This document shows positions 5,237 to 19,002 of a DNA stretch of 32,000 bases, in pieces. Numbering within the stretch: position 1 is the first letter of the stretch; each line of letters begins with the position of its first letter. Origin of the DNA: an uncultured archaeon (GTDB lineage Archaea > Micrarchaeota > Micrarchaeia > Micrarchaeales > CABMGC01); the NCBI GenBank assembly GCA_963704435.1, contig OY969902.1:60001-92000 (forward strand). The letters are read 5' to 3'. The notes below the pieces were generated by a model. The model had not been told where the DNA came from and ran no database searches. It saw only the letters and a list, made by a program, of their open reading frames with translations. The position numbers and the translations under genes were made by a program.

Positions 5237-5461
5237 ATGCGGATAGGCGTCACGGTCGTCCCGAACTCGAAAAGGCCGGCGGTCTTCAGGATCGACGACG
5301 CAAACTACAGGGTGAAGGTCGACGCTCGCGCCGTCGAAGGCAGGGCGAACGAGCGCCTCGTCGAGCTGCTTTCCGAGCACTTCGGGGTTCCGAAGTCCCG
5401 CGTGACGATAGTCGCGGGCGCCCGCGGGCGTAGAAAGACAGTGGAGGTCGGCCGCGAATAG
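5237..5461 (+). CDS. DUF167 (YggU) family protein
   Basis: ORF track 5231-5461 (TTG); ATG at 5237. The pattern V.V.PNSKR....D.....V.V.A.A.EG.AN..L...L...FGV.KS.V.I..G...R.K.V matches the recalled YggU/DUF167 signature. Confidence 0.75.
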   Translation: MRIGVTVVPNSKRPAVFRIDDANYRVKVDARAVEGRANERLVELLSEHFGVPKSRVTIVAGARGRRKTVEVGRE

Positions 5462-5512
5462 GCAGGAGTTTGACGCAATGCCGGTCCGTCTCGCCGCCTC
5501 CGCTGCGTTTTT

Positions 5513-6646
5513 ATGCTTATTTGTAGTGATAACTGCAAGTCATCCCGGGCGATCGGATTGAAGAAGATAATAGGCATAAGGGGAGTGCTCGAGGTCATAG
5601 TGATATTCGCGGCCGTGATGCTCGCGGGCGCACTCATAGCCGCGGCGGCGGTCAGGACATCCAGCGTATCCATACTCTACGACACGCTTTCTGCGCCTAC
5701 GTTCGCGGTGTTCTCCTACTTCGTCGACGCAGCGCTCATACTGATAATCGCGCTGCTCATGATCAGGAGGCATGCGCACCACAGCAATACGGTCCTGTTC
5801 GAGGCGCTCGATGGCATAGTCACCACCTTCACTTCCTTCTTCCTGTTCCTCCTGCTCTTCGCGATGCTGCTGCCCCTCTCGGTGGCGACCGGATGGGTCT
5901 ACGTGTACTCGGCCGTGACCGCGATGGCGCTGATACTGGTCAAGGACATGCACCACAGGCTCAGGGACCTAACCACGGCCGTGTCCAGCATTGGCGTGGG
6001 CCTGGTGCTCGGGCTCAACTTCCCGCTGTCCTACGCGATCTTCCTGATGGGCGCAGTGGCGGTATACGACTACATCGCAGTGTTCAAGACTAGCGAGATG
6101 GCGGACCTGGCGAGGTCATTCTCCTCGCAGGACCTCTCGTTCCTGATAAGCGTGTCCGACCTCGAGCCCGTGTCGGAGCGCGGGCTCAGCCAGAAGGAGA
6201 TAATCCGCTACATAGAGTGCCTGGCGAAGGATGACGAGCTTGACGATCCGCGGTGCAGGGCCATACTCAAGAAAGGCGAGCTCCCGGCGCAGTCCAGTGT
6301 GTCCCTCGGCGAGGGGGACCTCAGCCTGCCGCTGATGGTCATAATAAGCGCCTACGCTTCGTTCAGCCACGCGATGGCCCTGGCCGTACTGGCGGGCGCC
6401 ATAGCCGGGATCTTCGCCACAATGGCGCTGCTGAAGGCCTACAAACGCCCCATACCCGCGATACCCCCGCTGTTCTCCTGCATAGGCCTCTTCGCGGGTT
6501 CCGCGCTGCTGCTTATCGGTGGCGCGTCGGCATACGCGGGTGCGCTTCTCGTTCTGGCGTGCGCCCTAGTCATGCTCGTGGACATAGTCACGATATCCAA
6601 GAAAATGCGCGACAGCGCAGCGGAGCGTTCGCGCAGGAAGCGGTGA
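5513..6646 (+). CDS. presenilin / signal-peptide-peptidase-like intramembrane aspartyl protease (A22 family homologue)
   Basis: 377-aa polytopic ORF. YD motif in a TM helix (GAVAVYDYIAVFK). A long hydrophilic loop is followed by GxGD (SLGEGDLSLPLMV) and a PAL-like PAIPPLF in the last helices. The true start is uncertain. Confidence 0.7.
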   Translation: MLICSDNCKSSRAIGLKKIIGIRGVLEVIVIFAAVMLAGALIAAAAVRTSSVSILYDTLSAPTFAVFSYFVDAALILIIALLMIRRHAHHSNTVLFEALDGIVTTFTSFFLFLLLFAMLLPLSVATGWVYVYSAVTAMALILVKDMHHRLRDLTTAVSSIGVGLVLGLNFPLSYAIFLMGAVAVYDYIAVFKTSEMADLARSFSSQDLSFLISVSDLEPVSERGLSQKEIIRYIECLAKDDELDDPRCRAILKKGELPAQSSVSLGEGDLSLPLMVIISAYASFSHAMALAVLAGAIAGIFATMALLKAYKRPIPAIPPLFSCIGLFAGSALLLIGGASAYAGALLVLACALVMLVDIVTISKKMRDSAAERSRRKR

Positions 6647-12635: not shown

Positions 12636-13424
12636 TCAGCACGATATCGTTATGGCGCCGCTGCCAGGCTGCGAGACTATACTTATTATTGTAGTCAGGA
12701 GCGGCTTCGCGGCCAGAACTATGACAAGCGCTATGACCGCGCCTATCAGCATCGTGGTCGACCACGTGGTGAGGCTCTTCTTGAAATCGAGGTTCGTGGG
12801 CAGGAAGTGGGATATCGAATAGAGGATTCCGCCCAGCAGGAAAAGGGTCAGCGCGAGTATGCCCACCACGTTCCTGATCTCGTCCACTATCCCGCAGAGC
12901 TGCAGGTTTATCGCCGACGCTGCCGGCTGCGCTATGGCGTTCTGGGAGGTCGCGTTGGCCGCGCCCGCAGTCGTGGTCGCGGAGGTTACCGATGTGGTGA
13001 TGGTCGTCGGAATGTAGACAGCGATCTCCGCCGCCGGGGAGAGCGCGGCAGATCCCTTGGAGTCGGCGATGTAGACGCAGTACCATGCGGTCTTGGGGGG
13101 CGTCACTACTATTGCGTCCCTGGTCGAGAAGACGCTGTCGTTCCTGAAGTTGTCGCTATCGGACTGGCATTTCTGGAACGGGCCCGAGTACCACATGACT
13201 TTGTACGGGGAAGTCCCGCCGTACCAGACTGCTATGACGTTGGCGCTCTGGCCGTAGGTTATGTTCAGCGCGTTCACCGTGACGCTGATCTGGACGATGG
13301 GGGACAGCAGCACCGGCGCGATGATGCCCGTGGGATTGCCTGTCGAGGCCGCGCCCGCAGATACAAACAGCAGCGCAAGCGCAAATGATATTGAAGTCGC
13401 CTGCAGGCCGCGCACCTTGAACAT
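12636..13424 (-). CDS. secreted PKD/Ig-like domain protein with C-terminal VirB2/TrbC-like hairpin module
   Basis: ORF track 12636-13454; I prefer the ATG at 13424 (MFKVRGLQATSISFALALLFVSAGAAS). Ig-like motif VWYGGTSPYKVMWYSG...C...WYCVYIADSKG. Last 87 aa: LCGIVDEIRNVVGILALTLFLLGGILYSISHFLPTNLDFKKSL...ISC-stop. Confidence 0.8.
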   Translation of the reverse strand: MFKVRGLQATSISFALALLFVSAGAASTGNPTGIIAPVLLSPIVQISVTVNALNITYGQSANVIAVWYGGTSPYKVMWYSGPFQKCQSDSDNFRNDSVFSTRDAIVVTPPKTAWYCVYIADSKGSAALSPAAEIAVYIPTTITTSVTSATTTAGAANATSQNAIAQPAASAINLQLCGIVDEIRNVVGILALTLFLLGGILYSISHFLPTNLDFKKSLTTWSTTMLIGAVIALVIVLAAKPLLTTIISIVSQPGSGAITISC

Positions 13425-13509: not shown

Positions 13510-15033
13510 TCAGCAGGATATGCTCAGCGCGCTGGCCCCTGTCGCGGACGCGCCGAGGTTCGCTATCAGCGTGAGCAGCGGCTTGGCCGCTATCACCACG
13601 ACCAGGGCGACCACCGCGCCTATTATCATGGTGGTGGACCAGGTGTGGAGGCTCTTCTTGAAATCGAGGTTCGTTGGCAGGAAGTGCGACACCGCGTACA
13701 GCACCCCTCCGAGAAGGAATAGCGTGAGCGACAGTGCGCCAACTATGCCCATCACCGACCCGACGAGCCCGCAGAGCACCGAGGAGATCGCGAATACCGT
13801 GCTTTGCTGCTGCGAGGTCGAGTTGGAGCCCGGCGTTCCCCCGACCGTGCTCCTTCCCGTCAGGACCGTTATCTCTATCGCCTGAGACGCGACCGTGGCG
13901 GGGGTGTTGGACGAGTCTGTGACGGTGTAGCAGTACCAGGTGCTTCCCGAAGGGGACAGCGCTATCGAGCCCGAGGTCGCCGACAGGTTGGCGCGCACTG
14001 CCAGCGTAACCGCGTCCTGGGCGCACGATGCGGACTGGCCCACGTACCATCTCAGCGTGTATGTCGGGGTCCCCCCGCTCCAGCCCGCGGTCAGGCTCAC
14101 CGCCTGGCCGTTGCTTATGCTGGAAGCGGTAGTCACCACGTTAGCTGCCAGGATCCTCGGGTTCACCGTTACCCCCGGCGACTCGTTGCTGACGGCCTTC
14201 CCCCTTGCGTATGCCACTGTCACCCTGCCCAGCAGCACGTTCCCCGCCTCCGCGGCGTTGGTCGTGTACGCAAGCGAGTTGTAGGCCATCGAGTTCGCAT
14301 TTATCACGTTCGCGAGCGCGTTCCCCGTGGCTGCGCTGACTATCACGAAATCGTAGGAGACGGGGGTGTAGTTCCCGTTCGCCATCGCGTTGAAAACCAC
14401 GGCCTGCCCCGCGTCTATCACGGTGCTGCTCACGGATATCAGCGGCGTCGGATAGACCGGCGGGGGCGCCATTGACTGCGAGAGCAGGAGCGCGGCGGCC
14501 GCGACCACGATCAGTATTATCGCTATCGCGGCGATGCTCTTCCACGGGATGCTCCGCTCCTCGTCCTCTTCGTTTTCGTACGCGCCGCCCGCTTTCGCCT
14601 CCTGCGGCACGTTCCTGCCTTCCTCTTCATGAACCGCTTCCGCTTCGGGCCCGGCTTCCTTTGGCGCGTGGCGCTCCTCCTGTTTTTCACCGGAAGCTAT
14701 CTGGCTCTCCTGCGCGGCGCCTTTCTCTTCCTCGCGGGCGCGCTCTTCGCGATGCTCCACGTGCCCCTCCTCCTGCTTGCGCTCCTCGCGGTGCTCTTCA
14801 GGGGGGCGCTCATGATGAGCCTCCTCGTATTTTTCCTCTGGCTTGTGCTCTTCGTGCTGGGCCTCCTTGTGCTCCTCCTTCGGCTTGCGCTCCTCATGGG
14901 CATGCTTGTGTTCCTCCCCGTGCTCCTTCCCCTCCTCGCGATGCTCCTTGTCCTTGTGCTCGGGATGCTGCGGCTCCTTGCGCTTCTTTCCGGCGCCCCC
15001 TTCCTTATGACCTGCCTTGTTTTCCTTCGCCAT
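13510..15033 (-). CDS. membrane protein: His/Glu/Lys-rich N-terminal tail, TM helix, two Ig-like domains, C-terminal VirB2/TrbC-like hairpin module
   Basis: 507 aa. The first ~165 aa are low-complexity H/E/K/R (HKEGG..EHKDKEHREEGKEHGEEHKHAHEE...). TM helix IAAIAIILIVVAAAALLL. Ig-like motif GWSGGTPTYTLRWYVG..C..WYCYTVTDSS. Last 88 aa: LCGLVGSVMGIVGALSLTLFLLGGVLYAVSHFLPTNLDFKKSL...ISC-stop. Confidence 0.8.
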   Translation of the reverse strand: MAKENKAGHKEGGAGKKRKEPQHPEHKDKEHREEGKEHGEEHKHAHEERKPKEEHKEAQHEEHKPEEKYEEAHHERPPEEHREERKQEEGHVEHREERAREEEKGAAQESQIASGEKQEERHAPKEAGPEAEAVHEEEGRNVPQEAKAGGAYENEEDEERSIPWKSIAAIAIILIVVAAAALLLSQSMAPPPVYPTPLISVSSTVIDAGQAVVFNAMANGNYTPVSYDFVIVSAATGNALANVINANSMAYNSLAYTTNAAEAGNVLLGRVTVAYARGKAVSNESPGVTVNPRILAANVVTTASSISNGQAVSLTAGWSGGTPTYTLRWYVGQSASCAQDAVTLAVRANLSATSGSIALSPSGSTWYCYTVTDSSNTPATVASQAIEITVLTGRSTVGGTPGSNSTSQQQSTVFAISSVLCGLVGSVMGIVGALSLTLFLLGGVLYAVSHFLPTNLDFKKSLHTWSTTMIIGAVVALVVVIAAKPLLTLIANLGASATGASALSISC

Positions 15034-15172
15034 TCCGCATCATTACTAATAAGAGAAACGCTGGATTTATATGATGCACGCTCGGAATTGCCGGTGTATC
15101 ATTAATTATCATATAGATAACTAACTGCACACTCCTATTTTGAGTGGTGTGGGGCACAACTGGAAGCCGGAG

Positions 15173-16228
15173 TCAGGGCTTAAGCTTTTTTATCATGCGT
15201 GCCTCAATTGGGTCATTAATCGCATAGGTCTCTCCCACCTTCTCGACAAGGCCCAATTTTACAAGGTTACGCAATAGGGAGCTCAGAATCGTGTCGGACA
15301 CGCGCTCTCCCTTCGCTGACACGTAAGGTTTTATCTCGCTCCACCTGTCGATGCCGTTTGCTATCGCCTTGAGCACGTAGATATATCTCCTTCTTGAGCG
15401 CGCTATAAGCCTTCCCACTTCATTTGCCAGGATCCGCGACCCTTCCTCAAATACTTTGGCGACCGCCTCCTTGTGATCCAAACCTAGTGCGCACCTGTAA
15501 TATCCGTAGTAGGCAAGCCAGCCGACGATGCCTCCTATGCTCTCGACGGCATCTTCTATCTCTGCCTCGGTCGCCTTGACGCCCGACTTCTTGAATCCCG
15601 CAGACAGAAATCCGGTGCTCTCCTTCCTCCCAAACCTGTCGAGGTATATCTCATCCCTGAACCTGCCGTACAGGGGTGCATTGGCATCTTCATATCTCAG
15701 GAAGTCCCTCAGCATTCCGATTTCGCTTCCGGTAAGCACATATGCGATGTTTGAGAGATTGTCTACGCTCCACGCAATTATCCCATCGTACCGTACCCTG
15801 CCCGCGTACCTCAGGTACTGGGCCTCATCAAGGGCGATGACGAAGAACACCCCCTTGCCTTTGCACCATTCATTTATTCCCTTAAGCAGGCTTGTTATGC
15901 TGTTGTCGATCAGCCCGCCTGAAAAGTTCTCGGGATCCAACCCCAGCCCGCTGGCGAACTTCACAAATTCCTCCGCCATCGCCTCTGCAAGTGCGGAAAG
16001 GGGAACAGACGTGTGCTCATAGTATATCTCCTTCAAGTCTATGAATATGTAAGGGAACTCTTTCTCGTTGAGCATGGCGCGTATGAGGCTAGTCTTGCCT
16101 ACCCGCCTCAGCCCATAGACCACGATTAGCCTCTCGCGCCTTTTCAGGGCACCCTCCAACTGTCCAAGCTCTTTCTTCCTATCATATAGGTCGTCCACGC
16201 TTTCCGTCGGATTCAGGTCGAATTTCAC
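15173..16228 (-). CDS. archaeal AAA-type ATPase (Arch_ATPase/ATPase_2 with C-terminal DUF234-like winged helix)
   Basis: 351 aa, GTG start. The beginning F..R..EL..L and the Walker A GLRRVGKTSL match the recalled PF01637 layout. Walker B-like FFVIALDEAQYL. C-terminal YIYVLKAIANG..RWSEI......VSDTILSSLLRNLVKLGLVEK is wHTH-like. Confidence 0.8.
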   Translation of the reverse strand: MKFDLNPTESVDDLYDRKKELGQLEGALKRRERLIVVYGLRRVGKTSLIRAMLNEKEFPYIFIDLKEIYYEHTSVPLSALAEAMAEEFVKFASGLGLDPENFSGGLIDNSITSLLKGINEWCKGKGVFFVIALDEAQYLRYAGRVRYDGIIAWSVDNLSNIAYVLTGSEIGMLRDFLRYEDANAPLYGRFRDEIYLDRFGRKESTGFLSAGFKKSGVKATEAEIEDAVESIGGIVGWLAYYGYYRCALGLDHKEAVAKVFEEGSRILANEVGRLIARSRRRYIYVLKAIANGIDRWSEIKPYVSAKGERVSDTILSSLLRNLVKLGLVEKVGETYAINDPIEARMIKKLKP

Positions 16229-16263
16229 TAATACACCTATTAGTTACTAATACTAGTATTAGT
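16227..16263. promoter_or_regulatory. two abutting palindromic operator-like sites ACTAATA-N4-TATTAGT over the ATPase gene start and promoter
   Basis: actaata-cacc-tattagt at 16227-16244 and actaata-ctag-tattagt at 16246-16263. Both are perfect inverted repeats with equal 4-nt spacers. They overlap the GTG start (16228) and the AT-rich core promoter. Confidence 0.4.
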
Positions 16264-16310
16264 AAAATTAATATGCGTATCGCGCCAGCACTCGCGCTGC
16301 GCAATTTATA

Positions 16311-16382
16311 TAGTGGTGTGCCGTAGCCTCTCTTCTGTTTTAGGTGGCATTCGACTTAGCGGCGTTCTGCCTTGCACGCTCA
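16311..16382 (-). repeat. 72-bp perfect duplicate of the 3' end of the RNase P RNA gene (att-like; non-functional rnpB fragment)
   Basis: Identical base for base to 17086-17157. The flanking bases differ on both sides (a/t upstream, t/c downstream). Same orientation as the intact gene. Confidence 0.9.
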
Positions 16383-16388
16383 TCGATA

Positions 16389-16730
16389 TCAATACTTGAA
16401 CCGTCTTTCATACTGCTTGTGGGGGAACCACTCCAGTATCACAGAGATTATCTCGATTTCGTTTCCACGTAGAGTGTACACCAACCTCCATCCGTTTGGC
16501 AGGTCATACTTCCTCAGGTTTGTGATTGCGAACCTCATCACGTACGCTCTGGGCCAGAGCCTCCTCCTTATCGCCACTCCCGCAAAGGGATCTTCCTTCA
16601 ACGCGTCCATTGCTTTCCGTATTTGCGAAGCGAGCTCTTTCTCCTCAAACTTTCCCGATTGCAATTCCAGGAAAGCCTTGCGGACTGACTCATCTCCGAA
16701 TCCGACCTTCTTCTCCCTTCCGTCGTTCAA
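16389..16730 (-). CDS. RelE/ParE-superfamily toxin-like protein
   Basis: 113 aa. C-terminal NLRKYDLPNGWRLVYTLRGNEIEIISVILEWFPHKQYERRF resembles the recalled RelE/StbE signature (..yR..l..gyRliY.v....i.i..i..H..Y). Overlaps the upstream small gene by 4 bp. Confidence 0.6.
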   Translation of the reverse strand: MNDGREKKVGFGDESVRKAFLELQSGKFEEKELASQIRKAMDALKEDPFAGVAIRRRLWPRAYVMRFAITNLRKYDLPNGWRLVYTLRGNEIEIISVILEWFPHKQYERRFKY

Positions 16731-17014
16731 TCAACCACCAGCCCGCGCTCGTGCATCTCCTTGACTTTTGAGGGATTCCACAGCCACGTTACCGTCCTGT
16801 CCTTTTCGACATGAATCTTGCCCGAATACTCAAGGTATTCGAGTATAGTGGTGAACGTGGACCACATCATTTTCTTCGGCAGCAGCCGCCATATCTGGGC
16901 CACGGTCTTGTCATTCCCGTACCTGAATAGCGCCTTCTCGACCATCAGTATCGAGTCGAGCCTTGGCGACCGGTCTATTTTCTTCGGGGCGCTTTTAAAC
17001 ACCTGCACTTGCAT
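16727..17014 (-). CDS. putative antitoxin / small winged-helix DNA-binding protein
   Basis: ORF track 16727-17023 (TTG); ATG at 17014. About 95 aa. Its stop overlaps the toxin start by 4 bp, the typical type II TA arrangement. The wHTH assignment is an inference from size and position. Confidence 0.5.
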   Translation of the reverse strand: MQVQVFKSAPKKIDRSPRLDSILMVEKALFRYGNDKTVAQIWRLLPKKMMWSTFTTILEYLEYSGKIHVEKDRTVTWLWNPSKVKEMHERGLVVD

Positions 17015-17018
17015 ATGA

Positions 17019-17048
17019 ATCAATTGATATATGTATCAACTGATATAT
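17019..17048. promoter_or_regulatory. tandem 14-nt direct repeats ATCAAYTGATATAT in the TA-cassette promoter (operator candidate)
   Basis: atcaattgatatat (17019-17032) and atcaactgatatat (17035-17048) are 13/14 identical with a 16-nt period. The first also contains the palindrome atcaattgat. TATA-like tatataaat follows on the minus-strand upstream side. Confidence 0.4.
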
Positions 17049-17085
17049 AAATACATCGGTGCGCGGATTTGATGGCCGGAAGCGT

Positions 17086-17324
17086 TAGTGGTGTGCCGTA
17101 GCCTCTCTTCTGTTTTAGGTGGCATTCGACTTAGCGGCGTTCTGCCTTGCACGCTCACTGTACGCGCATCGGCGCGTTTCACGCGCACGCGCACGCTCGT
17201 CGCGTCATCGCTTTATGTGCGCCAGCGCTTGCGTTTCTGCTCCGAATATGGCCTTGGGCCTCGCGTACTCCGCGTGGAGAGAGCTTCCTCAGTCTTTCGA
17301 CCGTAAGCCACCCGCACACCACTA
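17086..17324 (-). ncRNA. rnpB: RNase P RNA (compact, type-A-like)
   Basis: Read on the minus strand.
- P1: 5' UAGUGGUGUGC pairs perfectly (11 bp) with 3' GCACACCACUA.
- P2: GGUGGC pairs with GCCACC.
- P3: GGUC-GAAA-GACU.
- CR-I-like GAGGAAGCUCUCUCC.
- CR-IV/CR-V-like AAGUCGAAUGCCACCUAAAACAGAAGAGAGGCUAC (compare E. coli AGAUGAAUG...ACAGAA...GGCUUA).
- P4: AGC[U]CUCUC pairs with GAGAGGCU, leaving a bulged U.
- TATA ttatataaa is centred about 26 nt upstream of the predicted 5' end.
Ends are good to a few nt. Confidence 0.75.
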
Positions 17325-17358
17325 ATCTTTTTATTGCTTCCCTCTTTATATAAGCCTT

Positions 17359-17730
17359 ATGATTGGCATTCTTGCGCTTCTCGCGGCGATAAACCTCACC
17401 AACGTCACAGCGAGCGCGAACTCGCTGGCAACCGCCGCTGCCTCGATAGTGCCTGGAGGCATAGGCGGCTCCCTGATAAGCGAACTACTCATCATAGTCG
17501 CCATACTCATCGTGCTGTTCATCGTCTTCAAGGTCGGAAAGGTCTTCTTCAAGCTGCTCTTCGGCATCATAGCAAACAGCATACTCGGCCTTGTCGTGAT
17601 CTTCGCCGCGAACACCTGGCTGAACCTGGCCATACCGCTAACTCTCCCGATCCTGCTCCCTACTGTGCTCTTCGGCCTGCCCGGTATAGGCACGATAATA
17701 CTGATGAGGCTGCTCGGGGCGCCGATCTGA
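17359..17730 (+). CDS. small polytopic membrane protein (possibly BofA-like)
   Basis: 123 aa with four hydrophobic segments. The C-terminal half NSILGLVVIFAANTWLNLAIPLTLPILLPTVLFGLPGIGTIILMRLL resembles the recalled BofA (PF07441) pattern. TATA-like tttttatt about 27 nt upstream. Confidence 0.55.
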   Translation: MIGILALLAAINLTNVTASANSLATAAASIVPGGIGGSLISELLIIVAILIVLFIVFKVGKVFFKLLFGIIANSILGLVVIFAANTWLNLAIPLTLPILLPTVLFGLPGIGTIILMRLLGAPI

Positions 17731-17925
17731 CTACTTGGCGAGCTCGACGTCTGCCTTGCTCACGGTCTTCCTCTTAGCATGCTCGGCGAGCATCACGGCC
17801 TTCTTCGCGACCGAGTAGGAGAACGTAGTCATGAGGTCGGCAAGCGCGTCCGCCGCATCGTCGCTCACTCTGTTTGCGCCCGAGTCCTTGAGTATCCTCT
17901 TCGCGGTGAGCTTCGAGATTCGCAT
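17731..17925 (-). CDS. archaeal histone (HMf family, single histone fold)
   Basis: 64 aa. KRILKDSGANRVSDDAADALADLMTTFSYSVAKKAVMLAEHAKRKTVSKADVELA aligns with recalled HMfB ([55 protein letters not shown]). Confidence 0.9.
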   Translation of the reverse strand: MRISKLTAKRILKDSGANRVSDDAADALADLMTTFSYSVAKKAVMLAEHAKRKTVSKADVELAK

Positions 17926-17964
17926 GGGGTAATATAATCTGCGAAGGTTTAAAAGATAAATCGA

Positions 17965-18426
17965 ATGGAAATCAGGGAGCTGCGCGCCGGAGACGGGAAG
18001 GCCCTGTCTCTGCTGGCAGCAAGCGTGTACGACGAGCTTCCGGAGACGATGAACCTATCGGAGAGGCCGGACGGCCCAGCCGCTGACGCCCTGCTTTGGA
18101 TTAAGCTCGAGAGCGCAGCGAGGGGCGCGCTCTTGGACCTAGTGGCAGTTGAGGAGGGCGAGGTGATCGCGGACTGCGAGATACTGCGCAGGGGAGAGGA
18201 GGGCCTGGTCGGGATAATCGTGTCCGGGGAGCGGCGCAGGAAGGGGCTGGGCAGCCTGCTGCTTGCGAGGTGCATGGACGAGGCACGGACAGCAGGGATG
18301 ACCGAGGTCACTGCAGAGATATCCGAGTCTAATGCCCCGGCGCTGGCCTTCTTCAGGAAGCACGGGTTCTCAGACCGCGCTCCGCTCAGGGAAGGAATTG
18401 TCCTTATGAGGAAAAGCCTACTTTGA
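17965..18426 (+). CDS. GNAT-family N-acetyltransferase
   Basis: 153 aa. Acetyl-CoA-binding motif A-like VSGERRRKGLGSLLLARCMDEA, followed by ESNAPALAFFRKHGF. Confidence 0.85.
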   Translation: MEIRELRAGDGKALSLLAASVYDELPETMNLSERPDGPAADALLWIKLESAARGALLDLVAVEEGEVIADCEILRRGEEGLVGIIVSGERRRKGLGSLLLARCMDEARTAGMTEVTAEISESNAPALAFFRKHGFSDRAPLREGIVLMRKSLL

Positions 18427-19002
18427 CCCGCTCTTGACTCCGAGCACGCTGCCGTTCTTCTGCGACAGTATCGCAACGATGTAGTTGCTGGACCTCTTCG
18501 TGGAGTAGTTGATTATGTACGCGTTGTCGCTCAGCGCCGTGACCGCGGTGACGTTCGGGGCGCCGTACGCCACGATGTACGCCTTCACGCTCGCAAGGCC
18601 CGATGCCAGCGTGGTCGCCACCTGCGGGTTCGGTATGAGGTTGCCCATCGAGTAGTTCATCGGCGTGCAGTTCTGGGCGTAGATGTCCTTCTTCGTGGAT
18701 ACGAAGCCGAACTTGGGGTAATCAAAAGAAAGTATGCTGTAAGACGGGCACGGCGACGTCGCGTTCAATATGACGGCGGCCTCCACGTGCCAGCTTCCGG
18801 AATAGTTGGAAGGCACCACTTCAGTGAGCGTGATGTTTGCGTTGGGATACAGGTCCATCAGGTCGGTCTTCACCAGCGCAGAGGCCTGCTGCGAGTTGAC
18901 GGACTGCGCCATCAGCATGTTCGATGTCGCTACGTAGTATCCGATGAACACCATCGCGACTATGACTATCGCGCAGACTATCACCTTAGCCAGCAGCTCC
19001 AT
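18418..19002 (-). CDS. N-terminally anchored extracellular protein (hypothetical)
   Basis: 194 aa. N-terminal TM helix (VIVCAIVIVAMVFIGYYV), several N-x-S/T sequons, Cys pairs. Its 3' end overlaps the convergent GNAT gene by 9 bp. Confidence 0.6.
   Translation of the reverse strand: MELLAKVIVCAIVIVAMVFIGYYVATSNMLMAQSVNSQQASALVKTDLMDLYPNANITLTEVVPSNYSGSWHVEAAVILNATSPCPSYSILSFDYPKFGFVSTKKDIYAQNCTPMNYSMGNLIPNPQVATTLASGLASVKAYIVAYGAPNVTAVTALSDNAYIINYSTKRSSNYIVAILSQKNGSVLGVKSGSK

Follow-up and report, generated by a model that had tools for sequence, protein, structure and literature searches.

A predicted toxin–antitoxin cassette between two copies of the RNase P RNA 3′ end in a Micrarchaeota genome

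Introduction

Genomic islands and proviruses use tyrosine integrases to insert themselves at the 3′ ends of tRNA and tmRNA genes, with SSV and pNOB8-type elements as archaeal examples. The cis-mobilisable elements (CIMEs) of streptococci are att-flanked DNA without recombination genes and are mobilised by a related integrative element. In Campbell-type integration, a circle with a chromosomal fragment recombines homologously, for example in single crossovers of suicide vectors. The movement of toxin–antitoxin (TA) modules between chromosomal sites is poorly understood, and mobile elements of DPANN archaea are almost unknown. Here we describe a predicted TA cassette of a DPANN archaeon that lies between two identical copies of the 3′ end of rnpB, the gene for RNase P RNA. 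It is located in a stretch of 32,000 nucleotides of a Micrarchaeota contig (OY969902.1 of assembly GCA_963704435.1, positions 60,001 to 92,000; the window in the following). The recombination footprints are intact, and the cassette shows an apparent presence/absence polymorphism. L numbers denote the loci and contigs compared with the window.

The locus resembles the tRNA and tmRNA islands in several features. The repeat corresponds to the 3′ portion of a gene for a stable RNA; this gene is complete on one side, and a displaced fragment lies on the other. The cargo has a foreign composition, and an empty site is probable, as suggested by one contig assembled with k=31. Unlike these islands, the target is rnpB, a single operon of 0.66 kb makes up the cargo, the repeats of sister species vary in length (72 vs. 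31 nt), and neither the element nor the 30 ORFs scanned in the 32-kb window included an integrase. Like CIMEs, the cassette has att-like boundaries around DNA without recombination or transfer genes, and it may be excisable in trans. It differs from them by its archaeal host, and no partner element on the same site was found. As in a Campbell-type integration, a shared segment is duplicated around the insert, an arrangement reversible by pop-out; unlike the suicide-vector crossovers, this is a natural case with just 72 nt of homology. Two other types of element were considered and rejected. An insertion sequence or transposon does not fit, with no transposase and no inverted repeats at the cassette ends, and to our knowledge 72 nt far exceeds any known target-site duplication. 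An integron cassette does not fit either: the repeat is rnpB sequence and not attC, and no integrase was found among the 30 ORFs scanned in the window.

Among RNA genes, ffs and csRNA genes are rarer integration targets (PMC12540744), and in a 2025 paper ffs was put forward as a novel RNA-gene target outside the tRNA genes. Full-text literature searches returned no description of integration into rnpB.

Results

Two direct copies of a 72-nt sequence, R1 (17086–17157) and R2 (16311–16382), are 100% identical at a spacing of 775 nt and form the sole long repeat in the region. Outside both copies, the flanking sequences differ from the first base on either side. A 34-nt sub-pattern with up to 3 mismatches had exactly 2 occurrences in the window, against 0 expected from 100 shuffles, and partial copies of at least 12 nt were absent elsewhere in the window. 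All features of the element lie on the minus strand. The repeat coincides with the end of rnpB. Positions 17087–17323 matched the archaeal RNase P RNA family RF00373 of Rfam with 90.3 bits (gathering score 84) over the full model, positions 1–288 of 288, which identifies them as a member of this family. This intact gene has 237 nt and a TATA-like sequence, CTTATATAAAG, at 17344–17354. Its 3′ terminus is set by the P1 helix, in which the 5′ strand AGUGGUGUG is paired with the 3′ strand CACACCACU in the cmscan alignment. The final base is 17087; R1 comprises the terminal 71 nt of the gene and one further base and forms an attL-like junction. R2 represents the displaced 3′ fragment at an attR-like junction and alone gave a partial RF00373 match (24.8 bits, E=1.4e-4). 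The first-pass annotation proposed that the TA transcript could make use of processing signals of the rnpB 3′ end; the repeat contains no oligo-T run. In 15 related Micrarchaeota, the rnpB genes gave full-length matches of 90–104 bits that end at a homologous ...CACCAC(N), and the sequences of these relatives diverge directly after CACCAC. The repeat boundary is therefore the end of rnpB. The genes of the window and of the 15 related loci scanned, with 233–239 nt, have large deletions in comparison to the 288-position archaeal model and look like a compact variant.

The first-pass annotation, made from the sequence alone, had read the locus as a perfect 72-nt direct repeat of the RNase P RNA 3′ end with immediate divergence on both sides, an intact gene restored on the proximal side and a displaced fragment on the distal side. 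The repeat search and the flank comparison agree with this description, the covariance model and the ends of the 15 relatives uphold the rnpB call on which it depended, and the full and the partial RF00373 match reproduce the arrangement of intact gene and fragment.

The unique DNA of the islet comprises 703 bp with a GC content of 0.498, compared to 0.59–0.61 in the flanking chromosomal DNA. In RNA sense, R1 is followed by a 34-nt segment, a TATA box with operator, an open reading frame (ORF) for 95 amino acids (aa), an ORF for 113 aa, a 6-nt spacer and R2. The 34-nt segment (17052–17085) connects R1 to the TA promoter and has homologues in the rnpB-linked cassettes of two related species (L066 and L046). 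It resembles the native rnpB trailer of relatives without a downstream cassette; the comparison with the L030 trailer gave a shuffle p=0.004, uncorrected for about 19 comparisons. The promoter and operator region (17017–17051) contains the TATA box TTTATATA (17044–17051) and, on inspection, two tandem 16-nt operator-like repeats, ATATATCAGTTGATAC (17033–17048) and ATATATCAATTGATTC (17017–17032). This tandem motif is also present ahead of paralogous cassettes (L073, 825–856; L074, 755–786; L068, 7961–7983; L081).

The 95-aa ORF (16727–17014) encodes the antitoxin candidate. It had no match in Pfam or NCBIfam, and it belongs to a well-conserved family with at least 94 homologue clusters of about 95 aa each. 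The AlphaFold model, with a predicted local distance difference test (pLDDT) score of 82.7, indicated a winged helix-turn-helix, and the top Foldseek matches were all winged-helix DNA-binding proteins (DtxR/IdeR, IclR, MecI and STIV F93). Such a protein together with the tandem operator fits a predicted autorepressing antitoxin. Its stop codon overlaps the start codon of the second ORF by 4 nt (TTGA). The 113-aa product of this ORF (16389–16730) belongs to the RelE/ParE/YoeB superfamily according to Pfam and Foldseek. The Pfam score for PF05016 (ParE_toxin) was 24.4 bits at a cut-off of 23; paralogues match PF05016 too, and the sources label the homologues RelE/ParE or Txe/YoeB. The model (pLDDT 75) matched archaeal RelE, ParE2, YoeB and RelK (1wmi, 5cw7, 2a6r, 3oei) with a Foldseek probability of 1.0. 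A sequence search of the PDB with toxin and antitoxin gave no meaningful match. The toxin stop codon TGA (16389–16391) is followed by the spacer TATCGA in RNA sense (16383–16388) and, 6 nt away on the same strand, by R2 from 16382 on, as the first-pass annotation had stated.

The RelE/ParE fold and the small upstream partner, translationally coupled by position and combining a winged-helix domain with an operator, characterise the operon as a predicted autoregulated type II TA system of a winged-helix antitoxin and repressor with a RelE/ParE-fold toxin. It shares with RelBE, ParDE and YefM–YoeB modules, including archaeal aRelE–aRelB (PDB 1wmi, 3bpq), the toxin fold, the upstream partner with a 4-nt overlap and the repeated palindromic operator motifs. 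Unlike in these modules, the partner is a 95-aa winged-helix protein without Pfam family and not RelB, Phd/YefM or a ribbon-helix-helix protein. By the names of its sources, the family seems restricted to DPANN archaea. The cargo had been described as a RelE-like toxin, a small upstream partner, a promoter with tandem repeats and nothing else, integrase included. ORFs, folds and operator support this: the two ORFs are toxin and antitoxin, and Pfam detected no integrase among 30 ORFs of the window.

The nearest rnpB loci all originate from metagenome-assembled genomes of Micrarchaeota. Upstream synteny is kept across this phylum, with genes for ThiI, a 194-aa protein, GNAT, a histone and a small membrane protein preceding rnpB. 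The downstream side is variable, with a CAP-domain protein as the usual gene next to rnpB in relatives. The sister species loci L066 and L067 are 85% identical to window positions 19000–16391 and have the same cassette directly 3′ of rnpB, with the same minimal content and no integrase at the locus. The cassette is flanked there by a 31-nt direct repeat with 2 mismatches, composed of the last 20 nt of rnpB and 11 nt of trailer. The inner boundary of the repeat thus differs, with 72 nt in the window and 20 nt of rnpB in L066, and a simple deletion cannot derive one from the other. That a second repeat has other boundaries but shares the rnpB-terminal core suggests this core as the place of recombination. 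Distal to R2, the DNA of the two species is unrelated: an ATPase_2 module in the window and a 360-aa ORF on the other strand in L066. In a third species, L046, whose rnpB is 92% and neighbouring gene 63% identical, the cassette also follows rnpB directly; the contig ends inside the antitoxin gene.

The identities between window and L066 were 79–89% for five flanking protein genes, 56% for a sixth, 96% for rnpB, 71/72 positions for R1, 90% for the TA promoter, 89% for the antitoxin and 82% for the toxin. The match of 71/72 shows that R1 is strongly constrained as part of rnpB. The cassette has co-diverged with the chromosome, since its segments are as similar to L066 as the flanks are. Because it has co-diverged and is shared with at least two related species, its association with rnpB predates the species split. 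This contradicts the first-pass view of a recent event; a recent process is required only for the identity of the 72 nt. Given a divergence of at least 7.5% per lineage since the split from L066, about 5 changes are expected in R2; an unchanged copy of 72 nt has a probability of about 0.004. With zero changes, R2 is not an old neutral relic in the source lineage. The repeat in L066 shows about the expected decay (2 of 31). The perfect repeat of the window implies a young age of the repeat, by recent re-integration or by gene conversion against the constrained R1.

The TTG start codon of the toxin gene (16728–16730) is replaced by CTG in L066 (6368–6372). The 113-codon frame is open there, and gene callers report 93 aa. 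The L066 toxin may be down-tuned or translated by coupling alone. A decay of the toxin, suggested by the 93-aa call, was rejected, as the frame is intact and only the start codon has changed.

The source population probably contains both filled and empty alleles of the site. The filled structure recurs in an NCBI contig, JBLFLA010487286.1 (GCA_052915985.1). An ENA contig of 2.2 kb (L012) covers flank, R1, cassette, R2 and flank, and L005, L009, L014 and L015 each cross one junction. Window-identical contigs are present in many samples, with about 1 single-nucleotide polymorphism (SNP) per 1–3 kb, as in a near-clonal population; one SNP, at 16373 within R2, occurs in one population contig, L013. 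With R as the 72-mer, the left filled junction reads rnpB 5′ part/R/ACGCTTCC and the right one toxin end/R/TATAAATT. The empty junction is rnpB 5′ part/R/TATAAATT, and a circle or a tandem would have toxin end/R/ACGCTTCC. The empty junction is present in L008, a Logan contig of run ERR11523660, which fuses window positions 16001–16382 to 17158–18390 via a single 72-mer with flanks of 100% identity. In this allele, TATAAATTGCG and the ATPase_2 gene follow directly after rnpB. The check for empty sites, proposed with the first description of the locus, yielded one population contig with the exact empty site, with the caveat of k=31. In other runs, Logan contigs (L002, L010, L077 and L078) reach precisely 30 nt (k-1) into the repeat from either side and stop there. 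Such breaks at k-1 are those of a de Bruijn graph with the filled allele present, and the pass-through in ERR11523660 suggests a real allele. A presence/absence polymorphism of the cassette is probable. Two deviating contigs were rejected as further alleles: an N-gap in the scaffold explains the apparent absence of R2 in L003, and L013 with its apparently different upstream context is a chimera with a histidine kinase fragment.

In other Micrarchaeota, family members of the cassette with 65–79% aa identity occupy loci unrelated to this one, in one case flanked by dnaJ and a methyltransferase gene and in others beside genes for HD-domain, ankyrin or sulfatase proteins. One of them (L081, 1976–3909) lies 27 nt upstream of a 414-aa ORF for a PF00589 tyrosine integrase, which is followed by about ten small ORFs. 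This cassette has 72.8% nt identity to window positions 17051–16391, a frameshifted antitoxin gene and an RHH_12/PIN toxin–antitoxin pair upstream. The region looks like an integrated mobile element, and no rnpB-like or tRNA sequence was present in its 8.6 kb. In the translated integrase ORF, no tyrosine is located downstream of the HSLRH motif, and the enzyme may be degraded. In L074 (1452–3323), four copies of a 26–44-nt repeat with the core ACGCCTTGGCCG... are spaced by 530–750 nt downstream of a same-family TA cassette. They lie between small genes, including a DUF433/DUF5615 pair.

A paralogous TA pair with about 35% aa identity is located on the other side of rnpB in L030 (2194–2942) and L056 (1208–1833), upstream of the small membrane protein gene and in the position of the histone gene of the window. 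In L030, which has no match to histone or GNAT, a 372-aa ORF without Pfam family lies beside the TA pair. L030 is the closest genome-derived relative; it also contains a 300-nt perfect direct repeat (5350–5649 and 5833–6132) with a spacing of 483 nt between the copies.

Downstream of R2, a gene for an ATPase_2 protein (PF01637) with a C-terminal MCM-type winged helix occupies, with its promoter, positions 15173–16310 at a GC content of 0.51. The promoter contains a perfect palindrome of 22 nt (16244–16265). Orthologues (L079, 1–830; L080, 1–1093) with about 80% nt identity are present in different contexts, one of them adjoining a gene for a 522-aa Toprim-domain protein, and the homology stops at the stop codon. 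The gene and its promoter behave as a portable single-gene module. Beyond the stop codon by 22 nt, where the orthologue homology ends, lies CACACCACT (15143–15151), the 3′-terminal 9-mer of rnpB. Apart from R1 and R2, the 9-mer is found on that strand of the 32 kb at this position alone; with an alignment shuffle p of about 0.05, it is a weak candidate for a decayed third copy (R3) of the rnpB 3′ end. A similarity between the post-ATPase DNA of L080 and the L066 trailer (p about 0.02) was unconvincing. In L030 and L044, rnpB is directly followed by the surface protein gene that sits beyond the ATPase_2 gene in the window.

Three putative surface proteins of the window (272, 507 and 263 aa) share a segment with 81% identity on the DNA level (12694–12809, 13571–13686 and 2307–2436). 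They have Ig-like or low-complexity, threonine-rich regions and belong to a paralogous family that lies downstream of rnpB, also in relatives.

Discussion

We consider it moderately probable that recombination inserted a minimal TA islet reversibly at the 3′ end of rnpB, and that the islet is old at this site and was recently refreshed. The anatomy of the locus, the folds of the two proteins, the cassette at the orthologous site in relatives, the pattern of divergence and one contig with an empty site are observations; a circular intermediate, the direction of the event and the enzyme are inferred. A circular or circularised cassette would have contributed an rnpB 3′ end of its own, followed by rnpB-trailer-like sequence. 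A single crossover with the chromosomal rnpB 3′ end, a Campbell-type integration, would produce an intact rnpB with R1, then the cassette and then, as R2, the original 3′ end, now displaced and adjacent to the former downstream DNA with the ATPase_2 gene. The reverse reaction between R1 and R2 would delete the cassette precisely and yield the probable empty allele of the population. Insertion or refreshment would have taken place more than once in the clade. A tyrosine integrase acting in trans and host homologous recombination on 72 nt of perfect homology are about equally likely as the enzyme. The trailer-like 34 nt after R1 suggest that the rnpB-like arm of the cassette was captured from an rnpB locus; this agrees equally with homologous recombination of the Campbell type and with an integrase acting in trans. 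Of the integration into the rnpB 3′ end claimed at first pass, the insertion itself is supported by the low GC content, the filled structure in independent assemblies, the empty-site contig and the sister cassette with its own rnpB-end repeat; the data fit site-specific as well as homologous recombination.

Several observations weigh against this explanation. No duplicated rnpB 3′ end was present in 48 other Micrarchaeota and related loci (25 from genomes and 23 from metagenomes), and rnpB is therefore not a general hotspot. Divergent repeat copies in all relatives had been named as a sign of an old, non-mobile rearrangement. This applies in part: the sister species has such a repeat, with 31 nt and 2 mismatches. 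The identity of the cassette to L066 (82–90%) is like that of the flanking genes (79–89%) and fits the vertical inheritance of a fixed insertion. As the DNA after R1 looks like a native trailer, the cassette core may first have inserted 34 nt downstream of rnpB through an unrelated process. Cassettes of the same family at other loci have no flanking repeats. The empty allele is represented by a single short contig; with a k of 31, below the repeat length of 72 nt, the same contig could arise falsely in a low-coverage sample in which the k-mers of both cassette junctions were lost. The searches for a recombinase or a free element were negative. Pfam detected no integrase in 30 of the larger ORFs of the 32-kb window, a scan that covered no short ORFs, and, among the families matched by more than one ORF, no recurrent integrase in 117 ORFs downstream of rnpB in relatives, where a lone integrase is possible. 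In IMG/VR viral contigs, the rnpB-like att sequence had no match and the antitoxin family had two spurious matches of 32 residues. A scan with the L081 integrase gave nothing, and neither did a tblastn search with the antitoxin against phage and plasmid collections.

The vertical signal would be explained by an ancient insertion in the ancestor of the source species, L066 and L046 that is now immobile and has been inherited vertically since. R2 would have been kept identical to R1 by intrachromosomal gene conversion, and the empty contig would be an artefact or a rare dead-end deletion. The equal divergence of cassette and flanks from L066, the cassette at rnpB in L046, the near-neutral decay of the L066 repeat (2 of 31), the lack of an integrase among the ORFs scanned and the nature of L008 as a single 1.6-kb k=31 contig are in agreement with such a history. 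Against it stand the inner repeat boundary, 72 nt vs. 20 nt of rnpB, which no simple deletion relates, and the fact that gene conversion does not lengthen a homologous stretch at the expense of unrelated DNA. Beyond R2, the two species also have unrelated DNA, and the repeat interrupts the Logan contigs of some runs but is passed through in ERR11523660. We regard an immobile insertion as unlikely. Even less likely is the remnant of a larger, integrase-bearing plasmid or provirus in rnpB, of which all was lost except a TA module preserved by addiction. The cassette of L081 beside its integrase ORF and many small ORFs offers a model for such an element, and the TA cassette and the adjacent ATPase_2 module both have a low GC content. 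However, the att-like repeats abut the TA operon at 34 and 6 nt, which would require a deletion with its endpoint exactly at attR. The content in L066 is equally minimal, and L081 is a single case with a perhaps degraded integrase and no rnpB-like sequence in 8.6 kb.

An origin of the duplication in mis-assembly is effectively refuted. Repeats longer than k often give assembly errors, and several contigs end within the repeat; but every junction recurs in independent assemblies of different samples and assemblers, L012 spans all of them, and the sister species has the same gene order. A further reading is compatible with the reversible insertion and extends it. Small single-operon islets, the TA cassette and then the ATPase_2 module, may have been added in turn at the rnpB end as a tandem array, in which R2 would be the boundary between islets and the decayed R3 would follow the ATPase_2 gene. 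This accommodates the surface protein gene straight after rnpB in L030 and L044, the three contexts of the ATPase_2 module, whose homology does not extend past the stop codon, the different gene in its slot in L066, and the recurrence of CACACCACT, unique on the strand outside R1 and R2, at 22 nt from the ATPase_2 stop. We hold the array to be rather doubtful: the R3 candidate has just 9 nt at p of about 0.05, L066 contains no convincing comparable remnant, and in other genomes the contigs end at the upstream boundary of the ATPase_2 module and do not include it.

Reversible insertion of the TA islet would place the RNase P RNA gene, if confirmed, on the short list of attachment sites in stable RNA genes. 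It also leads to a speculative model of the biology of the cassette. An addiction module without integrase may use the 3′ end of an essential ribozyme gene as attachment site and enter the chromosomes of relatives by host recombination or by an integrase in trans. The insertion would restore the gene, and addiction would resist the loss of the cassette. Since the end of rnpB is nearly invariant (71/72 at 85% genome identity), the cassette could enter the chromosome of any relative. If this tentative model is true, TA genes move self-sufficiently without a recombinase of their own, and the site may gather further single-gene islets such as the ATPase_2 module.

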